Assembly (NCBI GenBank): GCA_944388575.1
Contig: CALXJF010000004.1
Span: 4,122 to 68,121, forward strand
Direction of reading: 5' to 3'
Source of the DNA: an uncultured Clostridia bacterium
GTDB lineage: Bacteria > Bacillota > Clostridia > TANB77 > CAG-465
Length of the DNA stretch: 64,000 bases
The number at the start of each line of letters is the position of its first letter. Within the stretch, counting starts at the first letter, position 1. Below the pieces are notes generated by a model. It did no database searches. It had not been told where the DNA came from and saw only the letters and a program-made list of their open reading frames with translations. The translations under genes and the position numbers were made by a program. This document shows positions 19,399 to 63,258 of the stretch, in pieces.

Positions 19399-20286
19399 TT
19401 ATTCCTCCCTTTTTATAATTTTCATAATAGTTAAAATAATTATCAAATATAAAAAAACGTTAAAATCAATTAAAACTCTACCTAAAATTGAATTAAATAT
19501 TATCTCTTTATATATTGTATTTTTTAAAATAACGTAGAACACTAAGAAAATATTTACTAATATAATAATTCCTAATATAAATAAATAATAATTCATTTTT
19601 TCTTTCTGTTTTTTTCGTAAACTACTAATTTGCACATAATATTTATTAAATTGATTTATAACTTTACTTATGCATCCTCCATTTATATAACATAACTTTA
19701 ATAAGTGAATAAATATATTTATTTCTTTTATATTTATTTCATCAGCTAAAAAATTAAGAGCTTTAACTATTTCAAATCCACTGTTTAATAAATTATTAAA
19801 TTCATTAATAAATATATTCAAAGGCTTAGTAGCTTGAATTTGTTTTAATGCCATAATAATATCATTTGAATTTTTAGAAAAACTTTCAAATCCTATAATA
19901 TATAGTGAAAAAGATTTCTTTATTTTATTTTTTAATTGTATTTTTATTATTTCTAAAAATAACATTGGTAAAATAAAGAATATTATAGAAATTATAAATG
20001 AACTAAGAATTAATTTTAAATTATAAAAAACTAGAATAAAAACTATTATGGCAAAAATAACAGAAAAAACAAATAAGTTAAAAGTATTAATTATTGATAT
20101 ATTAATAGGATATACTTTTTTTATATAATCTAAAGATTTAGATATATTTTTAATATAATTATTTTTTTTTACAAAATATTTAAAAATTTTAATTATGTTA
20201 GTATAATTTAATGATAATATATAATTTATTATATGGTAAATTAGTATTAGCGTAATTATACATATAAAAACTTTAATAATTATCAT
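19399..20286 (-). CDS. T2SS-F / TadB-TadC-like platform membrane protein
   Basis: 295 aa with the layout N-terminal TM, cytoplasmic helical domain (IIMALKQIQATKPLNIFINEFNNLLNSGFEIVKALNFLADEI...), then C-terminal TMs. ATGA overlap with the upstream ATPase gene. Confidence 0.72.
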   Translation of the reverse strand: MIIIKVFICIITLILIYHIINYILSLNYTNIIKIFKYFVKKNNYIKNISKSLDYIKKVYPINISIINTFNLFVFSVIFAIIVFILVFYNLKLILSSFIISIIFFILPMLFLEIIKIQLKNKIKKSFSLYIIGFESFSKNSNDIIMALKQIQATKPLNIFINEFNNLLNSGFEIVKALNFLADEINIKEINIFIHLLKLCYINGGCISKVINQFNKYYVQISSLRKKQKEKMNYYLFILGIIILVNIFLVFYVILKNTIYKEIIFNSILGRVLIDFNVFLYLIIILTIMKIIKREE

Positions 20287-21443
20287 CTAGGATACCTCTT
20301 ATAAATAGATCTGATAAAGTATTTATTTTTCTTTAAATCGTATTCTATATTTCCAATTTCTTCTATTTTATAATCTTTCATAAAAATTATACAGTTAATA
20401 CAACTATACAGTATTTTTTTTATGAACTCTTCGTCATACTTTTGTGCTTTTATATCTCTTTTACATAGAAGTACTAATCTGTCTATTACAGTAAAAATAG
20501 AATCTGCATGTACTGTCGAAAAACCTATATGTCCAGTATTAATAGCATCAAAAAATACAGAAGTTTCTTCTCCTTTTAATTCTCCAACTACAATTATATC
20601 GTTTGACATTACTAAACTATGTTTTAATAAAGTCTTTAAATCAATTCTATTATTAATTTTATTCATACCAATTTCTCTTTGGATAATATTTTTATTTTCT
20701 ATAAATAATTCACTAGTCTCCTCACATACAGTCATAGGTATTATATCTGGAAAAGTTGTTAAAATTGTTCTTAACAACGTAGTTTTTCCGCTACCTCCTT
20801 TTCCTGCTATTATGGTACTATACCTATTATTTATTATATATCTTAGTTCTTTTAAACTCTTCTCATCTAACATTTTCTTTTTATATAAATCATTTAAATT
20901 ATAATTACTAAATCTATGTATTCTTATAATTAAGTTATCATCTATATAATTAATTGGAGATATTCCAGCTTCTATTCTAAGCTTATATTCTTTATCACTA
21001 ACAATAACAATAGGGTTATCATAATTAATAACACCATTATTTTTTACAATACAATATTTAATGTAATCTCTAAATTCTTCCTTGTTATTAAATTTTTCAT
21101 CAACAATTTTCCATGCTCCATTTATTTTTATATATACTAGATTATATCTTACTACTCTTATATCAGACACACTCTTATTATCTATATACTTTTGAAGAAC
21201 TCCATATCCAAAAATTTTATTTAATACACTACTTATTATATCTTTATAATTATAACTCTTATCAACACAATATTTTAAACAGATATATTCTTTTATTTTT
21301 CCTTCAAAAAAATCCTTATTTTTAGTAAATAGATATTTAGAATAATTTGTAGATATATATTTTATTACTTCATCAATATCTACTGTACTGTTCTTTTCTT
21401 TTATAATATTTTTTTTACTAACATCAAAAGGATTAATTATCAT
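20283..21443 (-). CDS. CpaF/TadA/VirB11-class secretion ATPase
   Basis: Walker A GKGGSGKTTLL, Asp box CEETSEL, Walker B IIVVGELKGEE, His box NTGHIGFSTVHA. Confidence 0.88.
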   Translation of the reverse strand: MIINPFDVSKKNIIKEKNSTVDIDEVIKYISTNYSKYLFTKNKDFFEGKIKEYICLKYCVDKSYNYKDIISSVLNKIFGYGVLQKYIDNKSVSDIRVVRYNLVYIKINGAWKIVDEKFNNKEEFRDYIKYCIVKNNGVINYDNPIVIVSDKEYKLRIEAGISPINYIDDNLIIRIHRFSNYNLNDLYKKKMLDEKSLKELRYIINNRYSTIIAGKGGSGKTTLLRTILTTFPDIIPMTVCEETSELFIENKNIIQREIGMNKINNRIDLKTLLKHSLVMSNDIIVVGELKGEETSVFFDAINTGHIGFSTVHADSIFTVIDRLVLLCKRDIKAQKYDEEFIKKILYSCINCIIFMKDYKIEEIGNIEYDLKKNKYFIRSIYKRYPR

Positions 21444-22653
21444 ATTTCTTTCCTATTGTATATATTTTTTTCAATAAATTATATCTATTACAATCTGATT
21501 TTAATCCTAAACTTTTATATAACATATTCATATCTATATCTATATTTAAATTAATACTTCCTCCATTTATATACGCTTCAACCTCTTTATAATAATCTAA
21601 TGTACATACAATTTTATATCCATTTAATAATGACTCAATTTGTTTTTTATCTAAAGAATCCTTTTGCCTTTTGTTAATGATTAAATGAATTTTACCTGTA
21701 TCATTATCCCAAAACCTTGTTATTAAATTAATATACTTTATAGCTTGTCTAATACTCATGTAGTTTGCATTAATAATAAATAATATTTTATCAGCTATAT
21801 TTAACGTATAAGGAACCACATCTAAAAAAGGTGATGATGGTAAATCTATTAAAGTATAATCACATTTTTTATGCACACTACTATATAACTTATCATAATA
21901 CTTACTAGATAGCTTATTTTGACAATCAAATAAACTGCAATTATTTGTTATGTACCAAAGATTTTTATTATCACAATCCTTAATCATATATTTTGAGATT
22001 ATGCTATTAACATCTTCTGAATTGTCTACACTTTCCACTATTTTGGAAAAAAGTGCATCTTTTTCATCGATGTTATTTATAATATCAATAGAAGGAGATT
22101 GTATATCCATGTCAAGAAGAGCAACCTTTATTTTAAAATCTTTTGCTAGTTTTTTTGCAATAATACTTGAAACTACTGATTTTCCTGAACCACTAGTACC
22201 GTAAATAGCTATAATTTTTTTAGTTATAACGTTATTATCGATTATATAATTTTGTGTTTCCTCTTTTATTACTTCATTATTTTTATATACAACCTTTTTA
22301 TCCTCTGTTATACTAGTTAATACCTCATTAATATCTATCTCTTCTCCTTCAATAATATTAAATACTTCATTTGCGAATAAAAATTCTTTATACTCCTTTG
22401 TTAATCTATTAACTAAATAAACAATATTAGTTTTAGGATTTGCTAATTTTATTTGTTTTATATACATTTTATTATCAATATTTCCATTTAAACTATCTCT
22501 TGTTACAAGAATAAATTCTGTATCATTTTGACTTAGAAATTCTATTACATTTTCTTTGGAATCTATATCATATTTATAAACCTTGTCTTTTACAAATTTA
22601 TTATTTATTCTTTTATATATTTCTTCATTATCAAGTGCGACCAATATATTCAT
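21433..22653 (-). CDS. TadZ/CpaE-like protein: atypical receiver domain plus a ParA/MinD-type ATPase
   Basis: The N-terminal region of about 120 aa has a receiver-like beta-alpha pattern (ILVALDNEE..., FILVTRD). The C-terminal part has the deviant Walker A IAIYGTSGSGKSVVSS and LLDMD. Start set at ATG 22653 (AAGGTG SD). Confidence 0.72.
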   Translation of the reverse strand: MNILVALDNEEIYKRINNKFVKDKVYKYDIDSKENVIEFLSQNDTEFILVTRDSLNGNIDNKMYIKQIKLANPKTNIVYLVNRLTKEYKEFLFANEVFNIIEGEEIDINEVLTSITEDKKVVYKNNEVIKEETQNYIIDNNVITKKIIAIYGTSGSGKSVVSSIIAKKLAKDFKIKVALLDMDIQSPSIDIINNIDEKDALFSKIVESVDNSEDVNSIISKYMIKDCDNKNLWYITNNCSLFDCQNKLSSKYYDKLYSSVHKKCDYTLIDLPSSPFLDVVPYTLNIADKILFIINANYMSIRQAIKYINLITRFWDNDTGKIHLIINKRQKDSLDKKQIESLLNGYKIVCTLDYYKEVEAYINGGSINLNIDIDMNMLYKSLGLKSDCNRYNLLKKIYTIGKKYDN

Positions 22654-24400
22654 TATTTTCACCTTCTATTATCTCATCTTCATAATTGCTTGCCTTAACT
22701 TTTAATACTGTATTATTATTACAAAATCCCAATAACATACTTCCTTTTTCTAATCTAGATACATCTTTTAATGTATCTTTAGCTATGACATTCAACTTAG
22801 ATAAAACTTCACTATCTGAATACTCTAATTTAAAAAACACCTTAAATTCAGAGTTGTTTAGTATAACTTTACCATAGTTTCCTTTATTTATACTAAAAAA
22901 ATCTGAAATATCTTGAGTTATTGTAACAATACTTGCCTTATTTTTTCTAATAGACTTATATAGAGAACAAATTAATTTAGCTATATTTCCATTTACATCA
23001 TTATTTATATATTTCCATAATTCATCTACATATATAATAACATCATTATTTAATCTATTATTTCTTAAATATTTATTTATCTTATTTAATAAATAAGATA
23101 CTACAACCTTCATTTTATCATATGTTAAAAAGCTCGTATCAAATACGACACTTGTATCAAGATTAATATTAGAATAATTAGAAAATTCACTATATTCATC
23201 TACTATATATTTTATTTTTTTTCTTAAATCATTTTCACTTATTTCATTAAGCAGATCATACATATTTGGAAACATATTATTTTTTTTAAGTTTTTTTTCT
23301 ATAAATATCTTTTCATCAGTATTTTCTATATATAAACTATTGATATCATAAGTAATGTTTTTTTCTAAATATACTTTTATCAAATAATCTTTTAAAATCT
23401 TTTTATCATTATTGTTAAGTTTTACAATAATAGAAATAAAGTCTATTATTTCTTGAATTTTATATTTTAATACATTAGATTCATATATTTCTATATCGCC
23501 CTCATTTATATCCATTATATTAATAAATTTATTATTATTTTTATTTCCAAACCTTACTAAATTTATATTTAATTTTTCAGCTAAATTATTATATTCTCCT
23601 TCAATATCAAATATATATTGTATTTTTCCTTTTAAAAAATGTCTTAAAACAATCAATTTAGTAAAATATGATTTACCACTACCACTACTACCTAATATAA
23701 TAATATTAGAATTTATATATTTTCTATCAAATATATCTATAATACTTAACTTATTTTCATTTTTGGTATAACCAAATATTATTCCATTTTTATCAAATGC
23801 ACTCCTAGTATAAAAAGGGAATATATTGGATAATGTAGAAGTAGTAATATTTCTATAGTTTTTATTAATTAAAATATTATCATAATTATTTATTGGTAAT
23901 GTTAATATATAGGAATCTAAATTTCTAAAATTACTTATATTAGAATAAATCTGTTTTGAAAAAAGTTTGCTTTGAAAATTTTTTATTATTTTAAATAATT
24001 CATCTTTATTATATGAGTAAAAAGTTATAAATAAGTTAAATTTATATACTTCTTCATTATTAAGTTGTATTTGCTTTCTTAATTCTTTTGAATCTATTTG
24101 TTGTTTATTTAATAAATCTATATCAATTTGATTTTTATTTGTTGTTTTTAATTCAGATTTATAGTTTGATAAATTATATGATATATCTTTTAGAACTTTT
24201 AAAGTATCTAATTTTTGAATATAAATACTAACATCATACATATATTTTTTTTCTATTGAATTAATTATTTGAGTAAAATATATTTTTACAGGATAATCAT
24301 ATATAACTAAACTAGCAATATATTTATCATCTACTTTTAAATAATTAAAATTAGAATTATCTATAAATGATGGAAAAAAATTAAATTTTATATTATGCAA
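22631..24400 (-). CDS. VirB4-family (TraE/TrsE-like, AAA_10) ATPase, main body
   Basis: FFPSFID...YIASLVIYDYP entry motif, Walker A ILGSSGSGKSYF, FDIEGEY, Walker B IIYVDELWKY, and VTITQDISDF. TTG start, in frame with the upstream 170-aa ORF. Confidence 0.8.
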   Translation of the reverse strand: MHNIKFNFFPSFIDNSNFNYLKVDDKYIASLVIYDYPVKIYFTQIINSIEKKYMYDVSIYIQKLDTLKVLKDISYNLSNYKSELKTTNKNQIDIDLLNKQQIDSKELRKQIQLNNEEVYKFNLFITFYSYNKDELFKIIKNFQSKLFSKQIYSNISNFRNLDSYILTLPINNYDNILINKNYRNITTSTLSNIFPFYTRSAFDKNGIIFGYTKNENKLSIIDIFDRKYINSNIIILGSSGSGKSYFTKLIVLRHFLKGKIQYIFDIEGEYNNLAEKLNINLVRFGNKNNNKFINIMDINEGDIEIYESNVLKYKIQEIIDFISIIVKLNNNDKKILKDYLIKVYLEKNITYDINSLYIENTDEKIFIEKKLKKNNMFPNMYDLLNEISENDLRKKIKYIVDEYSEFSNYSNINLDTSVVFDTSFLTYDKMKVVVSYLLNKINKYLRNNRLNNDVIIYVDELWKYINNDVNGNIAKLICSLYKSIRKNKASIVTITQDISDFFSINKGNYGKVILNNSEFKVFFKLEYSDSEVLSKLNVIAKDTLKDVSRLEKGSMLLGFCNNNTVLKVKASNYEDEIIEGENNEYIGRT

Positions 24401-24409
24401 TTCCTCCTC

Positions 24410-24922
24410 CTATAATTTGTTTAAATGTTTATATAATATCTTTTCAAATTCATATCTACCATGTACTCTAATTACTTTACAACCAATCTCTTCAAGTTTA
24501 TAAACAACTCTATCATACTCATCAACATTTATTTTTTCCTTACTATTTTCAGATATTACAATTAAAATTTTTGTTTCATATACATCTTCAATCTCTAATT
24601 TTTGTTTTATATCTTCAATGTATTTTATATATATATCAAGTGGAATTATTTCTTTATATGAATAATACCTTTCTATATAATTATCTATATCTAACCTCTC
24701 ATTAGATATAACAATCTGTATTTTAAAATTACATTCTCTTAAAAGCTGAGTATATACTTCTATAATGTTGTATTGTATACTTTCTGATAAATCTAAAAAC
24801 AGTACAGGTTCTATTCTATATAAATATACCCTTTCAATATTTTTATTTATTCTTGTTAAAATGTACTCATCTTTCACAGCCTCAATTTTAAATAATTCTT
24901 CTATATCTTTATATTTTGACAT
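24410..24922 (-). CDS. detached VirB4 N-terminal domain (170 aa)
   Basis: The pattern I..I.......Y.I.P......S......II..Y..LL....FKIQIVI, then a K.EE.G.KV....G.E.... tail, matches from memory the first ~170 aa of Gram-positive VirB4 proteins. It is separated from the ATPase body only by TAG plus 3 codons in the same frame. Confidence 0.55.
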   Translation of the reverse strand: MSKYKDIEELFKIEAVKDEYILTRINKNIERVYLYRIEPVLFLDLSESIQYNIIEVYTQLLRECNFKIQIVISNERLDIDNYIERYYSYKEIIPLDIYIKYIEDIKQKLEIEDVYETKILIVISENSKEKINVDEYDRVVYKLEEIGCKVIRVHGRYEFEKILYKHLNKL

Positions 24923-24958
24923 ATCCCTCCTTTGATTATATAAACATTTTATATTTAT

Positions 24959-24987
24959 ATATTAATACAATTATGTAAAATTGTCAA
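24959..24987 (-). promoter_or_regulatory. sigma-A type promoter of the VirB4/Tad-like operon
   Basis: On the minus strand: TTGACA (24987-24982), 17-nt spacer, TAATAT (24964-24959), about 35 nt upstream of ATG 24922. Confidence 0.6.
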
Positions 24988-45038: not shown

Positions 45039-45280
45039 TTATCCACAGTGCTGTGGATAACTTTTTTACAATAAAACATACATTCTTTTATAAAAATTTA
45101 AAATAAAAAAACTCAAAAAGTATTGTATTTTCAAACTATTCATGATATATTTACTTTAGCAATTTTTATTTTATTTTTCACATGTTTCACATTAATCCAC
45201 ATTAATTATGTAAAGATAATTTTTAGATACTATTATTTTGTCGAAAAGTTATCAACACCTGTGGATAACTCTGTGGATAA
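45039..45280. other. oriC, upstream DnaA-box cluster (incA-like)
   Basis: TTATCCACA (45039) and TGTGGATAA (45052) as an inverted pair. Also TTAATCCACA (45192), TTATCAACA (45249), and TGTGGATAA twice (45260, 45272). TGTCGAA lies at 45239-45245. Confidence 0.85.
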
Positions 45281-45315
45281 CTTTTAAAAAACATGTGTTT
45301 ATGAAAGGTGGTTTT

Positions 45316-46737
45316 ATGGAAGAAAATTTTATGGATATATGGTCTCAAGCCTTAGAAATACTGCAAGAAGAAATTTCTCCTGTTGGCTATAAAACATATG
45401 TAGATGTAATGATACCAAGAGTTGTGGATAACAATACTTTATGCTTTCTATCTCCGTCAAATTATCACATAGATATTTGTAAAAAAAGATATTTAGATTT
45501 AATACAAAATACTTTAACTTTTCTAACAAAAAAATCTTATAATATAACTTTTGAAGCAAAAGAAATTATTCCAGACACAACTCAAGAAGATACAGCAGTA
45601 TATAATAAAGAGACTACATTAGAAAAAACCACAAAAGAAGAAACAGAGCAAATAAAAACTAATATAGTAAATACACAGATTGCTCAAGAAAATACTAATG
45701 AAAAAGCAGAAAGAGCAGGATTAAACCCAAGATATACTTTTGAAAATTTTATAATTGGGTCAAACAATAGGTTTGCTCATGCAGCAGCTGTTGCTGTATT
45801 TGAAAATCCAGGAAAGAAATACAATCCATTATTTATATATGGAGGAGTAGGACTTGGGAAAACACATTTAATGCAAGCAATAGGAAATGCTATGTATCAG
45901 GCAAATCCAGATATAAAAATAATTTATTGTACAGGTGAATTATTTGCTAATGAGGTTATATCTGCAATTATGAATAATCAAAATGAATCTTTTAGAAAAA
46001 AATATAGAAATATAGATTTACTATTAATTGATGATATCCAGTTTTTAGCAGGTAAGGACAAGTGTCAAGAAGAATTTTTCCACACATTTAATACATTATT
46101 TGAAAGTGGAAAACAAATAGTTTTAACCTCAGAAAAGCCACCTAAAGAGATTGCACTTTTAGAAGATAGACTAAAAACAAGATTTGAGATGGGACTTTCT
46201 GTAGATATTCAAACACCTGATTATGAAACACGACTAGCAATCCTTAGAAAAAAAGCAGAGAAAGAAAGATATGTTATTAGTGATGATATATTAGTAAAGA
46301 TAGCTACAAAAGTAAAATCCAATATAAGAGAATTAGAAGGCGTATTTAATAAATTAGTAGCGTATACATCATTTACAAATAATGAACTAACTGATGCAGT
46401 AGTAGAAAATACTATCGAGTCAATACTAGTAAAAAATACAAAAGTATTAACAAGTAAATTAATTATGCAAGTAGTATGTAAATTTTTCAATATAAAAGTT
46501 TCAGATATTGTGAGTGATAAAAGATCAAATAGTGTTGCTTTTCCAAGACAAATAGCTATGTACTTATGTAGGGAAATAGCAAATATGTCTTTTCCAGCAA
46601 TAGGAAAAGATTTCGGTGGAAGAGATCACTCTACAGTTTTACATGCATACTCAAAAATAAAAGATGAATATGAAAAGAACTCAGAAACAAAAGATTTAAT
46701 TGATGATATTAAAAAAGCTTTATCTATAGCGGATTAA
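45316..46737 (+). CDS. dnaA: chromosomal replication initiator DnaA
   Basis: GGVGLGKTHLM, LLIDDIQFL, and the C-terminal DNA-binding domain (RQIAMYLCRE...GGRDHSTV). Start moved to ATG 45316 (AAAGGTGG SD) because the track start lies inside DnaA boxes. Confidence 0.95.
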   Translation: MEENFMDIWSQALEILQEEISPVGYKTYVDVMIPRVVDNNTLCFLSPSNYHIDICKKRYLDLIQNTLTFLTKKSYNITFEAKEIIPDTTQEDTAVYNKETTLEKTTKEETEQIKTNIVNTQIAQENTNEKAERAGLNPRYTFENFIIGSNNRFAHAAAVAVFENPGKKYNPLFIYGGVGLGKTHLMQAIGNAMYQANPDIKIIYCTGELFANEVISAIMNNQNESFRKKYRNIDLLLIDDIQFLAGKDKCQEEFFHTFNTLFESGKQIVLTSEKPPKEIALLEDRLKTRFEMGLSVDIQTPDYETRLAILRKKAEKERYVISDDILVKIATKVKSNIRELEGVFNKLVAYTSFTNNELTDAVVENTIESILVKNTKVLTSKLIMQVVCKFFNIKVSDIVSDKRSNSVAFPRQIAMYLCREIANMSFPAIGKDFGGRDHSTVLHAYSKIKDEYEKNSETKDLIDDIKKALSIAD

Positions 46738-46793
46738 AGCTGATTATTACAATAATATTACAAAAACATTTCCAAATCATTACTTTTAAAAAA

Positions 46794-47069
46794 TTATCCA
46801 CATATAACTGTGGAAAACCCTGTGGACAAAATGTGAATAAGTCATTCTAAAAAAAATTATCCACACAGAACAAATTTTCTGTGGATAAAAATAACAAGTT
46901 ATCCACAGCTTTATCCACAAGAAAAAAACTAGCTATATCAAGGGTTTGAAATAGTTATCCACATAATCCACAATACCTACTATGACTACTACTAAATAAT
47001 AAAATAATATATAATAATATATGTATGTATACCAATTTTAAACATTTAACATGTGGATAGTGTGAATAA
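46794..47069. other. oriC, downstream DnaA-box cluster plus AT-rich unwinding region
   Basis: At least 10 perfect or 1-mismatch boxes. TTATCCACA at 46794, 46857, 46899, 46911 and 46955; TGTGGATAA at 46880; variants at 46809, 46821, 46832, 46964, 47052 and 47061. A nearly pure AT stretch spans 46985-47040. Confidence 0.85.
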
Positions 47070-47312
47070 ATAGAGTGAGTTTAAATATGAATAAATTTTT
47101 TATCAAGAAAATGAACTTAATATTGCTAAATATCAATTTGATTTTTGTAAATATAAAGACAGTAAAAAAATATGGATGTAAAAATATAAAATAGTAATTG
47201 AATATATACTAAATAATGAAAAAGCTTGTGATGAAATTCAAAAAAAGGGGAAATAAATACCCATGGCAATAACTATACATTTAAATGAATAATAAAAATT
47301 GGAGGATAAAAG

Positions 47313-48428
47313 ATGAATATTAAATGTAATTTAAAAGAATTAATAAATGGATTAAATGTAGTATCAGTAGCAACTAATACTAGAACTACAATGCCAATAC
47401 TTGAAGGAGTTTTAATAGAAGCATATCAAGATAAATTAAAACTTACAACTAATAATTTAGAACTTGGATGTGAACATGTACTTGATTGTAATATTATAAA
47501 AGAAGGAAAAACAGTTGTAGATATTAGAATGTTAAATGAAATTATTAGAAAAATAGAAGATGAGATTGTAGAAATAATAGTAGAAGATAATTTGTTTACC
47601 TTAAAATCAGTTAATGGTATTTTTAAATTAACTACTATGGATGCAAATGAATATCCTAAATTACCTATATTTAATGTTGAGAGTACTATAGAATTAGAAC
47701 AAAGAGTATTTAAAGACATGATAAAGAGAACTATATTTTGTGTAAGCAATGATGAAAATAGACCTATATATAATGGAGCATTAGTAAAAGTTGATGATAA
47801 TATATTAACAATTGTAGCAGTAGATGGTTTTAGATTAGCTTTAAGAAAAAATTTAAGTGAAAAAAATATAAATAACTTTAAAGCTATTATTCCAGGAAAA
47901 GTATTAAATGAACTATTGAAAATATTAAGTGATAATGAAGATTCTTACGTAAAAATTGGAGTTAATAAAAATCAAGCTTTATTTCAAATTGGACAGAGTG
48001 TTATAATTTCAAGAATTATAGAAGGTGAATTTTTAAATTATAATTCTATAATACCAGAAAATTATGAAACAAAAGTAAAGGTAAAAACAAAAAATTTATT
48101 AGACTCATTTGAAAGAGTTGCACTATTTGCTAAAGAGAATAAAGAAAAAGATAAAAAATCTCCTGTTAAAATGCAAGTAGGTATAGATGGAATTGTTTTA
48201 AGTTGCGTTAGTGATACTGGAGATGCTAAAGAAGTAATAACATCTATAGTAGAAGGTAAAGATATTGAAATTGGATTTAATCCAAGATATGTAATTGAAG
48301 CATTAAAAGCAATAGATGATACAGAAATTTCTATTGAATTTACTACAAATATATCTCCAGTTTTAATAAAGCCTACAATTAATAATGATTATATTTATGT
48401 AGTTTTACCGATAAAATTAAGACAATAA
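47313..48428 (+). CDS. dnaN: DNA polymerase III beta sliding clamp
   Basis: 371 aa in the conserved position after dnaA, with typical three-domain length and motifs. Confidence 0.93.
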   Translation: MNIKCNLKELINGLNVVSVATNTRTTMPILEGVLIEAYQDKLKLTTNNLELGCEHVLDCNIIKEGKTVVDIRMLNEIIRKIEDEIVEIIVEDNLFTLKSVNGIFKLTTMDANEYPKLPIFNVESTIELEQRVFKDMIKRTIFCVSNDENRPIYNGALVKVDDNILTIVAVDGFRLALRKNLSEKNINNFKAIIPGKVLNELLKILSDNEDSYVKIGVNKNQALFQIGQSVIISRIIEGEFLNYNSIIPENYETKVKVKTKNLLDSFERVALFAKENKEKDKKSPVKMQVGIDGIVLSCVSDTGDAKEVITSIVEGKDIEIGFNPRYVIEALKAIDDTEISIEFTTNISPVLIKPTINNDYIYVVLPIKLRQ

Positions 48429-48437
48429 AGATAATAA

Positions 48438-48480
48438 AATAACAAGAGACTGATTGAAGTTTCTTGTTATTATTTACTTT
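48438..48480 (+). terminator. hairpin after dnaN
   Basis: AATAACAAGA / TCTTGTTATT stem. Confidence 0.5.
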
Positions 48481-48529
48481 TTATTATTATTACTTTAATA
48501 CAATTAATAAAAAATATAATGAGGTAAAT

Positions 48530-49603
48530 ATGAAATTAAATGAATTAAAAATAAAAAATTTTAGGAACTATAATGAAGAACATATAGAATTTATAAATGG
48601 AATAAATTTATTTGTTGGAAATAATGCACAAGGAAAAACTAATATAATAGAATCTATTTATATGTGTGCTTTTGGAAAGTCATACAGAACAACAAAAGAT
48701 ACAGAAATAATTAAATTTGATAAAGAGTTTTGTAACATAGAATTAAATTATGAAAAAAACAATACATTTAACAACATAAAATTAAATTTAAATAAAATAA
48801 ATAAAAAAGAGATAACAAAGAATGGTATAAAAATAAATAAAATTTCAGATCATGTAGGAGATATTTTAGTTGTTATATTTTCTCCAGATAGTTTAGATAT
48901 TGTAAAAGGAGCTCCTGGAAAGAGAAGAGCATTTATTGATATGATATGTTGCCAACTTTCAAAATCATATTTAATTATTCATCAGGAATATATGAAATGT
49001 TTAAAATTAAAAAATATACTATTAAAGAAGGATATAATTGATAAAGAGTATATATATGTATTACACGAAAAAATGAGTGATTATATATTAAAAATAGTAA
49101 ATTTTAGAAATCAAACAATAGGAAAATTATTAGAAAAAGCCAAAAATATAGAGTTAAGTTTAACTGATGGTAAAGAAAATATAGATATAGAATATATAAG
49201 TGATTTTATAAATTTAAATAAATATGAAATTAAGAAATATTTAGATGATCATTTATATATAGATATTTTAAGAAAATCTTCTGTAAAAGGTATACAAAGA
49301 GACGATATTAATATTTATATAAATAATATGGAAGTAGGAAAATATGGTTCTCAAGGTCAAAATCGTACGGCATTACTTACATTAAAATTAGCAGACTTTG
49401 AAGTACTAAAAGATGAAAAAGAAGATAGACCTATTTTATTACTTGATGATATTATGTCTGAGCTCGATAGTACAAGGATTAACTATTTATTGAAATATAT
49501 AGAAAATTATCAAAGTATAATAACTACGACAGATTCTTCATTTGTGGAAAATGTGGATAATATACAAATTTTGAAAGTTTTAAATGGAAGACTTGAAAAA
49601 TGA
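48530..49603 (+). CDS. recF: DNA replication and repair protein RecF
   Basis: MKLNELKIKNFRNY, Walker A GNNAQGKTN, and signature SQGQNRT..L.LKLA. Start ATG 48530 after GAGGT. Confidence 0.92.
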   Translation: MKLNELKIKNFRNYNEEHIEFINGINLFVGNNAQGKTNIIESIYMCAFGKSYRTTKDTEIIKFDKEFCNIELNYEKNNTFNNIKLNLNKINKKEITKNGIKINKISDHVGDILVVIFSPDSLDIVKGAPGKRRAFIDMICCQLSKSYLIIHQEYMKCLKLKNILLKKDIIDKEYIYVLHEKMSDYILKIVNFRNQTIGKLLEKAKNIELSLTDGKENIDIEYISDFINLNKYEIKKYLDDHLYIDILRKSSVKGIQRDDINIYINNMEVGKYGSQGQNRTALLTLKLADFEVLKDEKEDRPILLLDDIMSELDSTRINYLLKYIENYQSIITTTDSSFVENVDNIQILKVLNGRLEK

Positions 49604-49639
49604 TGTTAATGTATGATATAAGTAAATAAGACAAAATGA

Positions 49640-51571
<1,932 letters not shown>

Positions 51572-60204: not shown

Positions 60205-61233
60205 ATGGTAGCAGCTAGAAGATTAAGAAAAAGTATGTTAAAAGATATGCCTGACATTAATTTAGACTCTATAGATAGTATTTCTAATGTAAAGCATAAA
60301 CATATAAATGCTTTAGGAGATGAAAATTTTATAAAAGATAATTTGGGTACTTTTGACGATGAATATAAACCTAAAATATCTATAAAGTTTAAGTATATTA
60401 TAAAAATATTTATGTGTGTAATAATAATTTTTTCATGTCTTTTGATAAAACTTTTTTTTAAAGAAAAAGTTTTATCAAATAAGTTTGTTGAAATATTAAT
60501 TACTGAATATAACAAAGATTATTCAAAAGAAGGTTGTATTGAAAAAGCAGAAGATATATTTAATGATATTTATACAAAATCTAAATATATAATTCCAGAA
60601 TCTTTGGCAATAAAAGTAAAATCAAAGTATATATCAGATATAAAACCATATTTAGTTAACTTTGAAGTTAAAGATGTATTTAATAAATTATTTTCAAGTA
60701 GTCAAAAAATTAATTCTACTGATAATAAAAAAGAGAGTACTTCTGAGGATACTGGAATGGGTGGAGGAGAACCAGTATTACAAACTATGGAGATTCCAGA
60801 TACGCAAATTAGTGATAATATTTATGCTATTTTAAATAAAAATATCGATATTAAACAACCTGTTCAAGGAACTATAACTTCTAAGTATGGAACAAGAGAA
60901 CAAATTTTTGAAGAATTAAGTAATTATCATACAGGTATAGATATTGCAAATAAAATGGGCACTGAAATATATAGTGCAACAGTTGGATTGGTAAAATCAG
61001 TTGAAGAGAATAATAAATATTATGGAAATAATATAGAAATTGAAACAAATGGTGTCATTTTTAAATATGCACATCTTAAAGATTTTAATGTAAAGGTTGG
61101 AGATGCAGTGACTCAAGATAGTATAATTGGATACATGGGGAGTACAGGTATGTCGACAGGACCACATTTACATTTTGAAATAAAAATAAATGGAGAAGCT
61201 GTGGATCCAAATGAAATAATCAAATTTTATTGA
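60205..61233 (+). CDS. M23/LytM-family metallopeptidase with an N-terminal membrane anchor (SpoIVFA-position gene)
   Basis: HTGIDIA and GSTGMSTGPHLHFEI catalytic motifs. Start at ATG 60205 after GGAGGT. The track start (TTG 60106) lies inside the terminator hairpin. Confidence 0.85.
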   Translation: MVAARRLRKSMLKDMPDINLDSIDSISNVKHKHINALGDENFIKDNLGTFDDEYKPKISIKFKYIIKIFMCVIIIFSCLLIKLFFKEKVLSNKFVEILITEYNKDYSKEGCIEKAEDIFNDIYTKSKYIIPESLAIKVKSKYISDIKPYLVNFEVKDVFNKLFSSSQKINSTDNKKESTSEDTGMGGGEPVLQTMEIPDTQISDNIYAILNKNIDIKQPVQGTITSKYGTREQIFEELSNYHTGIDIANKMGTEIYSATVGLVKSVEENNKYYGNNIEIETNGVIFKYAHLKDFNVKVGDAVTQDSIIGYMGSTGMSTGPHLHFEIKINGEAVDPNEIIKFY

Positions 61234-61240
61234 GGTGTAT

Positions 61241-61873
61241 ATGAAAATTAAAACACCATTTTTGGTATTAGAGATAGAAATCCTATTTATAATCGTAATT
61301 TTTATTTCCATATTTTCTAGTACATTTTTTGATTATATTTTAAATTATTTTATTTGTTATTCTTTTATATTGTTTCATGAGTTATCTCATATGTTTATGG
61401 CTTCAGTATTTGGAAAAGAGATCAATATTTTTAAATTTTCTATCTCTGGTGTCAATATAAAATTTAAAGAGGAAAGTCATAAAAAAAATATTAATATATT
61501 AAAAGAAATTCTAATATATATTGTCGGACCATTTTCAAATGTTTTTTTAGCAATGCTATTAAAAAACAATATTATGATATTTCAAATGAATTTATTTTTA
61601 GCATTTATAAATATTTTACCTATATATCCTTTAGATGGTTATAATATCTTAAGAAATATTTTTTATATATTTTTTAGTAAGAAGAAAAGTAATATAATTT
61701 TAGAGTGTACTAATAAGTTTGTTTTTATAATAATGTTAGTTATAGCCTTATTACAAGTAATTTTTTTGAAAAATCCATCTATAATTATTTTTTCTATATA
61801 TATTTTCTTTATTAATCAAAATAGTAAAAAAGATAGAAGATATAAAGAAATTTTAGATACTATAATATGTTAA
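61241..61873 (+). CDS. M50 site-2 protease, SpoIVFB-like, without a CBS domain
   Basis: HELSHMF (HExxH) within a TM helix and NILPIYPLDGYN (NxxPxxxLDG). Confidence 0.8.
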   Translation: MKIKTPFLVLEIEILFIIVIFISIFSSTFFDYILNYFICYSFILFHELSHMFMASVFGKEINIFKFSISGVNIKFKEESHKKNINILKEILIYIVGPFSNVFLAMLLKNNIMIFQMNLFLAFINILPIYPLDGYNILRNIFYIFFSKKKSNIILECTNKFVFIIMLVIALLQVIFLKNPSIIIFSIYIFFINQNSKKDRRYKEILDTIIC

Positions 61874-61983
61874 AATAATATGTCAAATAAATTACAAAAA
61901 TATTACACTTTTTTATAAAAATGCTTGATTTTTTTGTAAAAAGATAGTATTATATATATAACATATTTTGGGGGTGTTTTAGA

Positions 61984-63258
61984 TTGGCTATAGGAGATAT
62001 TATAGTTGGCTTAGATATAGGTGTCTCTAAAGTAAGCTGTGTAATAGGACAAGTTAACAAATTTAATGAAATTGAAGTAATTGGATATGGCCTTTCAAAT
62101 AATTCTGGTGTAAAAAAAGGTTTAATAATAGATCCCCAAAGAGTATCAAAATCAATAAAAGAAGCTGTATCATCAGCAGAAGAAATATCAGATTTGTCAG
62201 TTAATTCTGCATATGTTAATATAAAAGGAATGAATGTTAGAATTGAAAAAATAGTTATGGAATCAGATGTAGAAAAACCAGATGATGGAATGACTATTAA
62301 CGATATATATAATTTGTTTACGAAAATACAAGTATCTACAAAGTTAGAAAAAGATGAACAAATTATAGATATTCTTCCATATGAATATCGAGTTAATGGA
62401 AGAGTATATAAAGAGGAACCTATTGGAGCTTTTTGTAAAAGTTTTGCTATGGAAGTTGAAGTAGTTATTGCAAAGGGAAGTTATATAGCTGGATTACAAA
62501 AAGCTTTAAAATATGCGGGAATTAAATTAGATGGATTAATATTAGAAACGTTAGCAACCTCAAATATAGTATTAATGCCTGAAGAAAAAGAAATGGGCGT
62601 TTTGCTTGTTGATATAGGTGGGGGGCATACAGATATATCTGTATATAAAAATTCTAAAATAGAATTTTATACAACTATTCCTGTTGGTGGTGATCATATA
62701 ACCAGTGATATAGCTTTGACTTTTGATATATCAACTGATGAGGCTGAAAAATTAAAGAGGCAATATAATTTAGCCATTATGGCTATGATTACAAATAATC
62801 ATGATGTAAAATTGTCAACTAAGATGTCTAATCAAGAAGATAATATTATTAGATGTAGTGATATAGTACAGGTGATTGAAGCTAGAATTAAAGAATTATA
62901 TCAAATAATGAAAAAGATGATTGCAGATAATAATCTTAATGGTAAAATTGAATGCATGGTACTTACTGGACAAGGTATAAGTCAAATAGTTGGTGCAGAA
63001 GAGCTTGCTATGTTAACTTTAAAAATAGATCAAGTTAGAGTTTGTAGTCCAAAATTAATAAATATTATAAAACCACAACATACTACAGTGTTTGGTATGG
63101 TTAGATATATAGCAAGTTTAGGGGTTAGCAAACATGTAAATAGTGATGTGGCAATAATAACAGAACCTACATTTAAAGATAAAATAATTGGTAATTTAAG
63201 GAATTTTAAAAATAATATATTTAAAAAAAGAAGTAATGAAAATAATGAGATGTATTGA
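61984..63258 (+). CDS. ftsA: cell division protein FtsA
   Basis: TTG start after GGGGGTG. VGLDIGVSKV, VDIGGGHTD, and the actin-like fold pattern. Confidence 0.92.
   Translation: MAIGDIIVGLDIGVSKVSCVIGQVNKFNEIEVIGYGLSNNSGVKKGLIIDPQRVSKSIKEAVSSAEEISDLSVNSAYVNIKGMNVRIEKIVMESDVEKPDDGMTINDIYNLFTKIQVSTKLEKDEQIIDILPYEYRVNGRVYKEEPIGAFCKSFAMEVEVVIAKGSYIAGLQKALKYAGIKLDGLILETLATSNIVLMPEEKEMGVLLVDIGGGHTDISVYKNSKIEFYTTIPVGGDHITSDIALTFDISTDEAEKLKRQYNLAIMAMITNNHDVKLSTKMSNQEDNIIRCSDIVQVIEARIKELYQIMKKMIADNNLNGKIECMVLTGQGISQIVGAEELAMLTLKIDQVRVCSPKLINIIKPQHTTVFGMVRYIASLGVSKHVNSDVAIITEPTFKDKIIGNLRNFKNNIFKKRSNENNEMY

Follow-up and report, generated by a model that had tools for sequence, protein, structure and literature searches.

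Among described type IV secretion systems (T4SS), those closest to the gene pair reported here encode TrsD, a protein published as a homologue of the VirB4 N-terminus, which belongs to the pGO1 subclass of MPF-FATA and has no assigned function (PMC12102498). In Patescibacteria TrsD is the most abundant T4SS component, mostly encoded beside virB4, and the T4SS of these bacteria is often located near the origin (Microb Genom 2025, PMC12102498). In the features of plasmid pSK41 itself, trsD encodes 227 residues and ends with TAG, after which 14 nucleotides containing AAGGGAG lead to the ATG of trsE, a 672-residue DUF87/VirB4-like protein in a different frame. The equivalents on pIP501 we take to be TraD and TraE. 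The locus considered here lies in a 64,000-nucleotide stretch of DNA, referred to as the window, from an uncultured Clostridia bacterium (GTDB lineage Clostridia; TANB77; CAG-465; assembly GCA_944388575.1, contig CALXJF010000004.1, positions 4,122 to 68,121), whose genome is a 1.47-Mb metagenome-assembled genome (MAG) of 53 contigs with 26% G+C, estimated to be 96% complete. On its minus strand an open reading frame (ORF) of 170 codons is followed, in the same frame, by one of 589 codons for a VirB4-like ATPase. An earlier sequence-only reading of the window regarded the two as a single VirB4 frame interrupted by an in-frame TAG. From the analysis described below we are confident that they are instead two ancient, separate and functional cistrons, one for a TrsD-like N-terminal domain and the other for a TrsE-like remainder of VirB4.

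The junction on the minus strand reads AAA CAT TTA AAC AAA TTA TAG GAG GAG GAA TTG CAT AAT. The TAG that ends the 170-residue ORF is at 24412-24410, and the nine bases that follow (24409-24401, GAGGAGGAA) form three sense codons, GAG GAG GAA, ahead of the TTG at 24400-24398 with which the 589-residue ORF opens in the identical frame. The Shine–Dalgarno (SD) sequence, AGGAGGAGG at 24411-24403, shares the final two bases (AG) of the TAG stop, and the TTG start is 5 nucleotides beyond the end of the first AGGAGG. This agrees letter for letter with the arrangement given in the sequence-only reading. The same TAG-gaggaggaa-TTG is present in five independent metagenome assemblies of the species from different samples, which show 0-2 differences over the gene pair (up to 2292 nucleotides, one assembly covering part of the first gene only). 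The junction is therefore unchanged wherever it could be compared across assemblies, and the stop is real. No terminator-like site was seen at the junction.

The separation of the first gene (N) from the second (C) is common to the relatives of this species. In the nearest other species, where N is 67% and C 69-70% identical, the junction is '...AAA ATA TAG gagggtta ATG', with the same TAG followed by an 8-nucleotide spacer that puts the two genes in different frames. A whole-genome search located the locus in 40 of the 41 genomes of the order, N and C being mostly separate matches, and the in-frame cases among these genomes have TAG, TAA or TGA as the stop. At loci from GTDB genomes of gut Clostridia, Saccharibacteria and DPANN archaea, an N-like ORF is found upstream of C in 74 of 79, adjacent or within a few hundred bases with one exception; the remaining five are cut off by the contig end or show no N in the stretch retrieved, and at none of the 79 do N and C share one ORF. 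The 63 complete junctions have frame offsets of 0, 1 and 2 in 14, 18 and 31 cases, respectively, and the N gene stops with TAG (27), TAA (25) or TGA (11). Among their layouts are overlaps of the ATGA and TAATG types, short spacers that carry an SD and gaps of up to around 450 nucleotides, and in one in-frame relative (locus L003, which is also L042) the spacer TAG-agg-TGA-TAA holds three stops. When 1.8 billion representatives were searched exhaustively with the N profile, 149 of the 150 best matches were proteins of 82-432 residues and a single one was a fused protein of 736 residues; a word-index search gave no long proteins with an N-like N-terminus. On these sequence comparisons the split is ancient, ancestral and widespread. 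Separate genes in varied frames across the relatives, the very state that the sequence-only reading had named as refuting it, run counter to its idea of one interrupted frame. The shared frame in the window is a coincidence of the 9-nucleotide spacer.

Relatives of the ATPase that are 24-26% identical are found in Candidatus Saccharibacteria (L109, L110) and in Candidatus Iainarchaeum/DPANN MAGs (L113, L115, L116). An N-domain-like ORF is positioned just upstream in four of these five loci; in L115 it is also upstream, but about 1.8 kb away. The two-gene layout therefore spans bacteria and archaea. The T4SS of Patescibacteria resembles the window locus in that bacteria with small genomes normally encode VirB4 in two genes, a conserved arrangement in a chromosomal and origin-proximal position, and the Saccharibacteria loci, which came up as distant relatives of C (25-26% identity), have the N-like ORF upstream. 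On the other hand, the window comes from spore-forming gut Clostridia, the identity is only around 25%, and VirB3, VirB6 and VirB2-like genes were not identified beside the window pair, where ParA-like and T2SSE-type ATPases are encoded instead.

The 170-residue protein, which is without a hydrophobic segment, is related to VirB4 through its family. In an alignment of 28 orthologues, 20 members match the N-terminal part of the VirB4_plasma profile (positions ~99-277 of 894), three match CD1110 (positions 2-162 of 752), one matches TIGR00929 (positions 5-134 of 792) and five match the TrsD/TraD family NF041427 (positions 10-175 of 201). An AlphaFold2 model of the protein, based on a 72-sequence alignment, has a predicted local distance difference test score (pLDDT) of 85.2 and a predicted template modelling score (pTM) of 0.74. 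The top PDB matches to this model in Foldseek are to TrwK, the VirB4 of R388 (7o42, 7o43, 8rtd, 8rtb), with a probability of 0.99-1.00, E = 4e-4 and a query TM-score of 0.44-0.56; Foldseek gave no target coordinates, and the placement in the N-terminal domain of TrwK comes from the sequence alignments. The protein also aligns with residues 25-180 of the naturally fused 736-residue relative. Several results weigh against this assignment. The window's own protein, searched alone, matches nothing in Pfam (E up to 10) or NCBIfam, and the family profiles have no meaningful match among PDB sequences. A precomputed assignment to Pfam PF26593 exists for one homologue, but PF26593 was not matched in the Pfam search. 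The hhalign match between the N profile and pSK41 TrsD is only moderate (probability 58%, E = 1e-4, 112 columns), and the assignment is one of family, fold match and collinear alignment taken together. With NF041427 the relatives score at best 26-36 bits, under the curated cut-off of 200 bits, while the window's N has no match to it. Overall the protein is a remote homologue of TrsD with a probable TrsD-like role, not a member of NF041427 at the curated threshold.

The 589-residue protein scores above the Pfam cut-offs for DUF87 (43.6 bits, cut-off 23.2), P-loop_TraG (28.0, cut-off 25.8) and AAA_10 (28.0, cut-off 27.5). Its Walker A (GSSGSGKS) and Walker B (VIIYVDELW) motifs are invariant across 18 homologues, and it is collinear with TrsE of pSK41 (BLASTP 3e-17). 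Only the C-terminal three quarters of the VirB4 profiles are matched, namely 192-726 of 752 for CD1110 and 307-893 of 894 for VirB4_plasma. The scores fall below the equivalog cut-offs for CD1110 (147.5 against 325), Mbov_0397/VirB4_plasma (178 against 590) and TraC (95 against 567); the protein is a distant relative within the VirB4 family and lies outside the named equivalogs CD1110, VirB4_plasma and TraC. Among the 120 matches listed, from a search that admitted proteins of up to 1030 residues, the homologues of the ATPase are 368-612 residues long, those with full coverage being 541-612. The TTG occupies the position of the ATG of the sister species, 8-10 codons ahead of the conserved Pro-Ser of the '(F/L)PS.ID' motif.

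An artificial read-through product of the two ORFs is collinear with the fused 736-residue relative over residues 16-746, with no gap at the junction. Here '...NKL-stop-EEELHNIKFNFFPSFID' pairs with '...NNGAGKGELAINKIA--PQTID' of the relative, which puts the TAG in a short interdomain linker. With the family, fold and collinearity of N pointing to the N-terminal part of VirB4 and the profile matches of C to the remainder, the pair equals one VirB4 cut at the interdomain linker, the second cistron comprising the middle domain and the P-loop ATPase. The sequence-only reading had proposed that the 170-residue product is a VirB4 N-terminal domain and that the two ORFs together approximate a full-length VirB4; the family profiles, the TrwK fold and the end-to-end alignment with the fused relative bear out both, and the alignment to a full-length protein that it had suggested places the TAG in the linker. 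The resemblance to fused VirB4 proteins (the CD1110 family and TrwK of R388, PDB 7o42/7o43/8rtd) is that N and C cover the whole profile between them, that the N model superposes on TrwK and that the pair is collinear with the fused relative. The difference is that in the window the polypeptide is cut at the linker into two products, with scores far below the equivalog cut-offs; these cut-offs are also unreached by the artificial fused product (CD1110 141.5 against 325, VirB4_plasma 186.7 against 590).

The arrangement is closest to that of TrsD and TrsE of pSK41/pGO1, in which the gene for a shortened VirB4-like ATPase is immediately preceded, on the same strand, by one for a small protein remotely homologous to the VirB4 N-terminus. 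The junctions are also alike, with a TAG, a short SD-bearing spacer and a start codon, and the relationship extends to the proteins, through the collinearity of the ATPase with TrsE and the matches of relatives of N to NF041427. The two cases differ in that the window N is only a remote relative, of 170 residues as against the 227 of TrsD, and in that the window locus is chromosomal, set among housekeeping genes, with ParA/TadZ-like and CpaF/VirB11-like ATPases encoded downstream. Similar pairs were seen on Bacillota plasmids. On the Pontibacillus plasmid NZ_CP062975 a 274-residue 'hypothetical' protein (L119:1579-2403) is encoded directly upstream of a 621-residue VirB4-like protein and matches the N profile in hhalign with a probability of 97% (E = 1e-10), and in C. 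difficile BI1 (NC_017177) a 322-residue 'hypothetical' protein (L120:1369-2337) directly upstream of a 640-residue VirB4-like protein does so with a probability of 62% (E = 8e-5). Both are TrsD-like genes that lack an annotation as such. On those Bacillota plasmids, one VirB4 that carries the label 'CD1110 family' is in fact the short form.

The SD sequence at the junction has a counterpart in the relatives. The N proteins end in a conserved ...(I/L)NK, after which a GAGG-type SD follows in many relatives. In many members of the genus the SD is inside the last codons of N (AAA GAG GTG GTA ATA TAG, encoding ...KEVVI and the stop), while in the window species and its closest relatives it comes just after the stop. 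The SD and the start of C keep their position and the stop codon shifts about them, so that GAGGAGGAA is an SD and not a relic of glutamate codons; the sequence-only reading had left these two options side by side, and only the first is in keeping with the conserved position.

Purifying selection acts on both genes, with ratios of non-synonymous to synonymous substitution (dN/dS) against the nearest species of 0.22 for N and 0.24 for C. Both probably share a single transcript that begins at a promoter ahead of the first gene; a candidate promoter is given in Table 1 (promoter-like matches in the region are no more numerous than in shuffled sequence). Ribosomes would terminate at the TAG, and the second cistron would be initiated at TTG 24400 through its own AGGAGG, the overlap of which with the stop suggests translational coupling. 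Such coupling would give roughly matched amounts of the two proteins, which presumably come together, with no covalent link, as a counterpart of full-length VirB4. Of the four explanations offered by the sequence-only reading, only a functional domain split with coupled re-initiation survives; its first half is upheld by the conserved two-gene state, and the coupling is a proposal drawn from the layout of the junction.

Many orthologues of both genes lack a canonical start codon, be it ATG, GTG or TTG. For the first gene, several loci (L002, L006, L007, L009, L012, L013, L016, L018-L021) have a strong SD, GGAGG[G], followed after 6-9 nucleotides by ATA, ATT or CTG at the conserved position, and in L019 the earliest canonical start is 155 codons in. 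The second gene is without a canonical start at 13 of the 63 junctions in L039-L108 (for example L069-L071, L073-L075, L077 and L079), and in most of these loci the sole candidate is an ATA that overlaps the stop of the preceding gene (ATATAG/ATATAA). Judged from these sequences, initiation at non-canonical codons seems unusually frequent in the operon of the VirB4 pair. A genome-wide habit was considered and rejected: only 28 of 893 long open frames in the window's own genome are without an early canonical start, and few of these 28 show an SD followed by ATA, ATT or ATC. A programmed -1 frameshift, considered for those relatives in which C is in the -1 frame and lacks ATG, GTG or TTG, was also rejected. 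The overlap of 16-19 nucleotides in these relatives has no slippery heptamer, a GAGG SD is positioned about 3-7 nucleotides ahead of the ATA that overlaps the stop (ATATAG), and the first gene of the operon, with nothing upstream of it, likewise starts with ATA, ATT or CTG after a strong SD.

A first rival explanation is that programmed or leaky read-through of the TAG adds a fused protein of ~763 residues beside the two separate proteins. In its favour, no more than three sense codons separate the two same-frame ORFs, termination is not especially strong at a TAG with a G after it, and the product of such a fusion would align collinearly with a naturally fused relative. The relatives, however, preserve none of what read-through would need: the frame is already different in the sister species with its 8-nucleotide spacer, only 14 of the 63 junctions are in frame, which is below the one third expected by chance, all three stop codons are used at the junction and the spacer of one in-frame relative contains three stops. 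Neither an unusual fold nor a stimulatory RNA structure is present at the window junction (fold z = -0.03), and no suppressor tRNA was found. With frame, stop codon and spacer all varying among the relatives, the programmed read-through raised in the sequence-only reading loses its footing, and even a low level of read-through giving a fused isoform, which would count against a strictly two-protein product, is improbable.

A recent nonsense mutation could have broken a fused virB4 that is now decaying or has been rescued by a chance restart. The in-frame layout does resemble the outcome of one base change, and in other T4SS classes VirB4 most commonly occurs fused. Against this, a stop after ...INK and a separate start are found in all the relatives examined, across the order and beyond, the junction is identical in five assemblies, and the fused form is absent among the 120 closest C homologues listed. 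The split in all relatives, together with a dN/dS of ~0.2 for both genes, excludes a recent mutation for practical purposes, and with it the pseudogenisation that had been suggested from the sequence; we regard it as highly improbable.

Decoding of TAG as an amino acid, pyrrolysine or another, would make the gene a single ORF. Some Clostridia do encode a pyrrolysine system, and TAG is somewhat over-represented between same-frame neighbours in this genome (20 of 221 against 45 of 1015, p = 0.011). This excess is accounted for by TAGGAG, in which the stop overlaps an SD: 20 long ORFs in the genome end in TAGGAG, and the share of stops with an SD-like motif behind or overlapping them is 16% for TAG as against 7% for TAA and TGA (2.6 times, p = 3e-5). 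As a sign of recoding the excess was therefore set aside. TAG is an ordinary stop in this genome. It ends 221-222 of ~1240 long ORFs (18%), and the median distance from TAG to the next in-frame stop is 7 codons, equal to that for TAA and as for TGA. Neighbouring ORFs, each of at least 150 residues, that are parted by a single in-frame stop occur as 65 pairs, 39 with TAA, 20 with TAG and 6 with TGA, so that an in-frame neighbour is in itself unremarkable. The search for pyl genes and for other in-frame TAGs that the sequence-only reading had suggested gave, besides these 20 TAG pairs, no PylS: the best match to PylS_Cterm scored 23.8 bits against a cut-off of 178, similar weak matches were seen in 13 control genomes, and pylBCD were not searched. 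No tRNA with a CUA anticodon is among the 26 found by ARAGORN in the 96% complete MAG. These 26 also include none for Ala or Ile, probably because regions of the rRNA operons are missing from the MAG, and with the set incomplete the absence of a tRNA from this assembly is weak evidence. Relatives have TAA or TGA at the same junction. The reading of TAG as an amino acid, another of the options raised at the outset, is extremely improbable. Finally, that an assembly or sequencing error produced the stop, as the 53-contig MAG might suggest, has a negligible probability and is counted as refuted by the five independent assemblies with their identical junction and 0-2 differences over the pair.

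The pair stands at the head of a series of genes on the same strand, the features of which are listed in Table 1.

Table 1. Features of the window at and downstream of the TrsD-like/VirB4-like gene pair (positions in the window).
Feature	Position	Strand	Basis
Promoter-like site upstream of the 170-residue gene, TTGACA-17 nt-TAATAT	24959..24987	-	Consensus match only; weak
SD (AGGAGG) of the 170-residue gene, 3 nt ahead of its ATG	24926..24931	-	Sequence reading
TrsD-like 170-residue protein gene, free-standing VirB4 N-terminal domain	24410..24922	-	ORF, ATG 24922, TAG 24412-24410; family profiles, fold, collinearity, dN/dS
SD of the ATPase gene (AGGAGGAGG), overlapping AG of TAG	24403..24411	-	Sequence; GAGG-type SD at the same place in many relatives
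VirB4-like ATPase body, 589 residues, TrsE-like, start TTG 24400	22631..24400	-	Pfam, NCBIfam, homologues, TrsE BLASTP, dN/dS
ParA/CbiA-type ATPase, 409 residues, TadZ/CpaE-like	21433..22662	-	Pfam/NCBIfam; 32-nt overlap with the end of the VirB4-like gene
T2SSE/VirB11/CpaF-class ATPase, 386 residues	20283..21443	-	Pfam/NCBIfam
Polytopic membrane protein, 295 residues, six hydrophobic stretches	19399..20286	-	Simple hydropathy scan; no Pfam/NCBIfam match

The ParA/TadZ-like gene follows the pair in all genus-level and most order-level relatives examined, and within the genus the gene order M16-M16-N-C-ParA is conserved. The T2SSE/CpaF-like and 295-residue membrane-protein genes are present in the window species, in the nearest species (L038) and in order-level relatives (L023-L029); by tblastn only, they are absent from the locus in one subclade of the genus, which has N-C-ParA-p243 only (L013-L022). 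The genes dnaA-dnaN-recF-gyrB are located at 45238-51571 of the window, where the GC skew switches sign, which places oriC there and the VirB4 operon about 20 kb away on the leading strand. Such an origin-proximal operon parallels the T4SS of Patescibacteria (PMC12102498).

Pfam and NCBIfam scans of most ORFs at ~10.9-34 kb, leaving out those at ~16.0-17.2 kb and those of less than 100 residues around 25.1-26.6 kb, revealed no relaxase, VirD4-like coupling protein, VirB6 or VirB1-like hydrolase. The only matches of these scans were the ParA-like ATPase, the T2SSE ATPase, PGA_cap, M16 peptidases, an MraY-type GT4, YqeY, RpiB, an amylase, CwlD and similar proteins, and the scanned ORFs do not place the locus among the conjugative T4SS of MPF-FATA; the unmatched flanking proteins (295, 243, 248, 214, 209, 152 and 154 residues) could hide divergent T4SS components. 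Tentatively, the TrsD-like/VirB4-like pair may lie outside any conjugative element and instead power a chromosomal apparatus near oriC that is passed on vertically and was domesticated from both a T4SS and a Tad system. This possibility, towards which we lean less than halfway, is raised by the presence of the pair in 40 of the 41 genomes of the order and by its fixed position beside the M16 peptidase genes in the genus. It draws also on the ParA/TadZ-like ATPase that follows and, in some lineages, on the CpaF/VirB11-class ATPase and polytopic membrane protein.

A second VirB4-like gene, encoding 677 residues and 25% identical to the first, is found on contig C3 (~61121-62977, minus strand) in a long co-oriented T4SS-like operon. 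It is directly preceded, with an overlap, by an ORF of 484 residues, with a hydrophobic helix at the N-terminus, a domain resembling TrsD (E = 6e-9) and a tail of acidic residues. Nearly all the related genomes that were searched also have a paralogue of this ATPase.

The junction is thus an ordinary instance of the known TrsD plus VirB4 layout, which requires no new mechanism, and annotation should mark it neither as a pseudogene nor as a site of recoding or a candidate for read-through. For the 170-residue 'hypothetical protein' the name TrsD-like VirB4 N-terminal-domain protein is suitable. The two-gene VirB4, published for pGO1-type plasmids and for Patescibacteria, is extended here to a chromosomal operon of uncultured gut Clostridia that is conserved across their order. 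If the pair does drive a domesticated apparatus, then a machine of this kind would be conserved throughout an order of gut Clostridia with small genomes.

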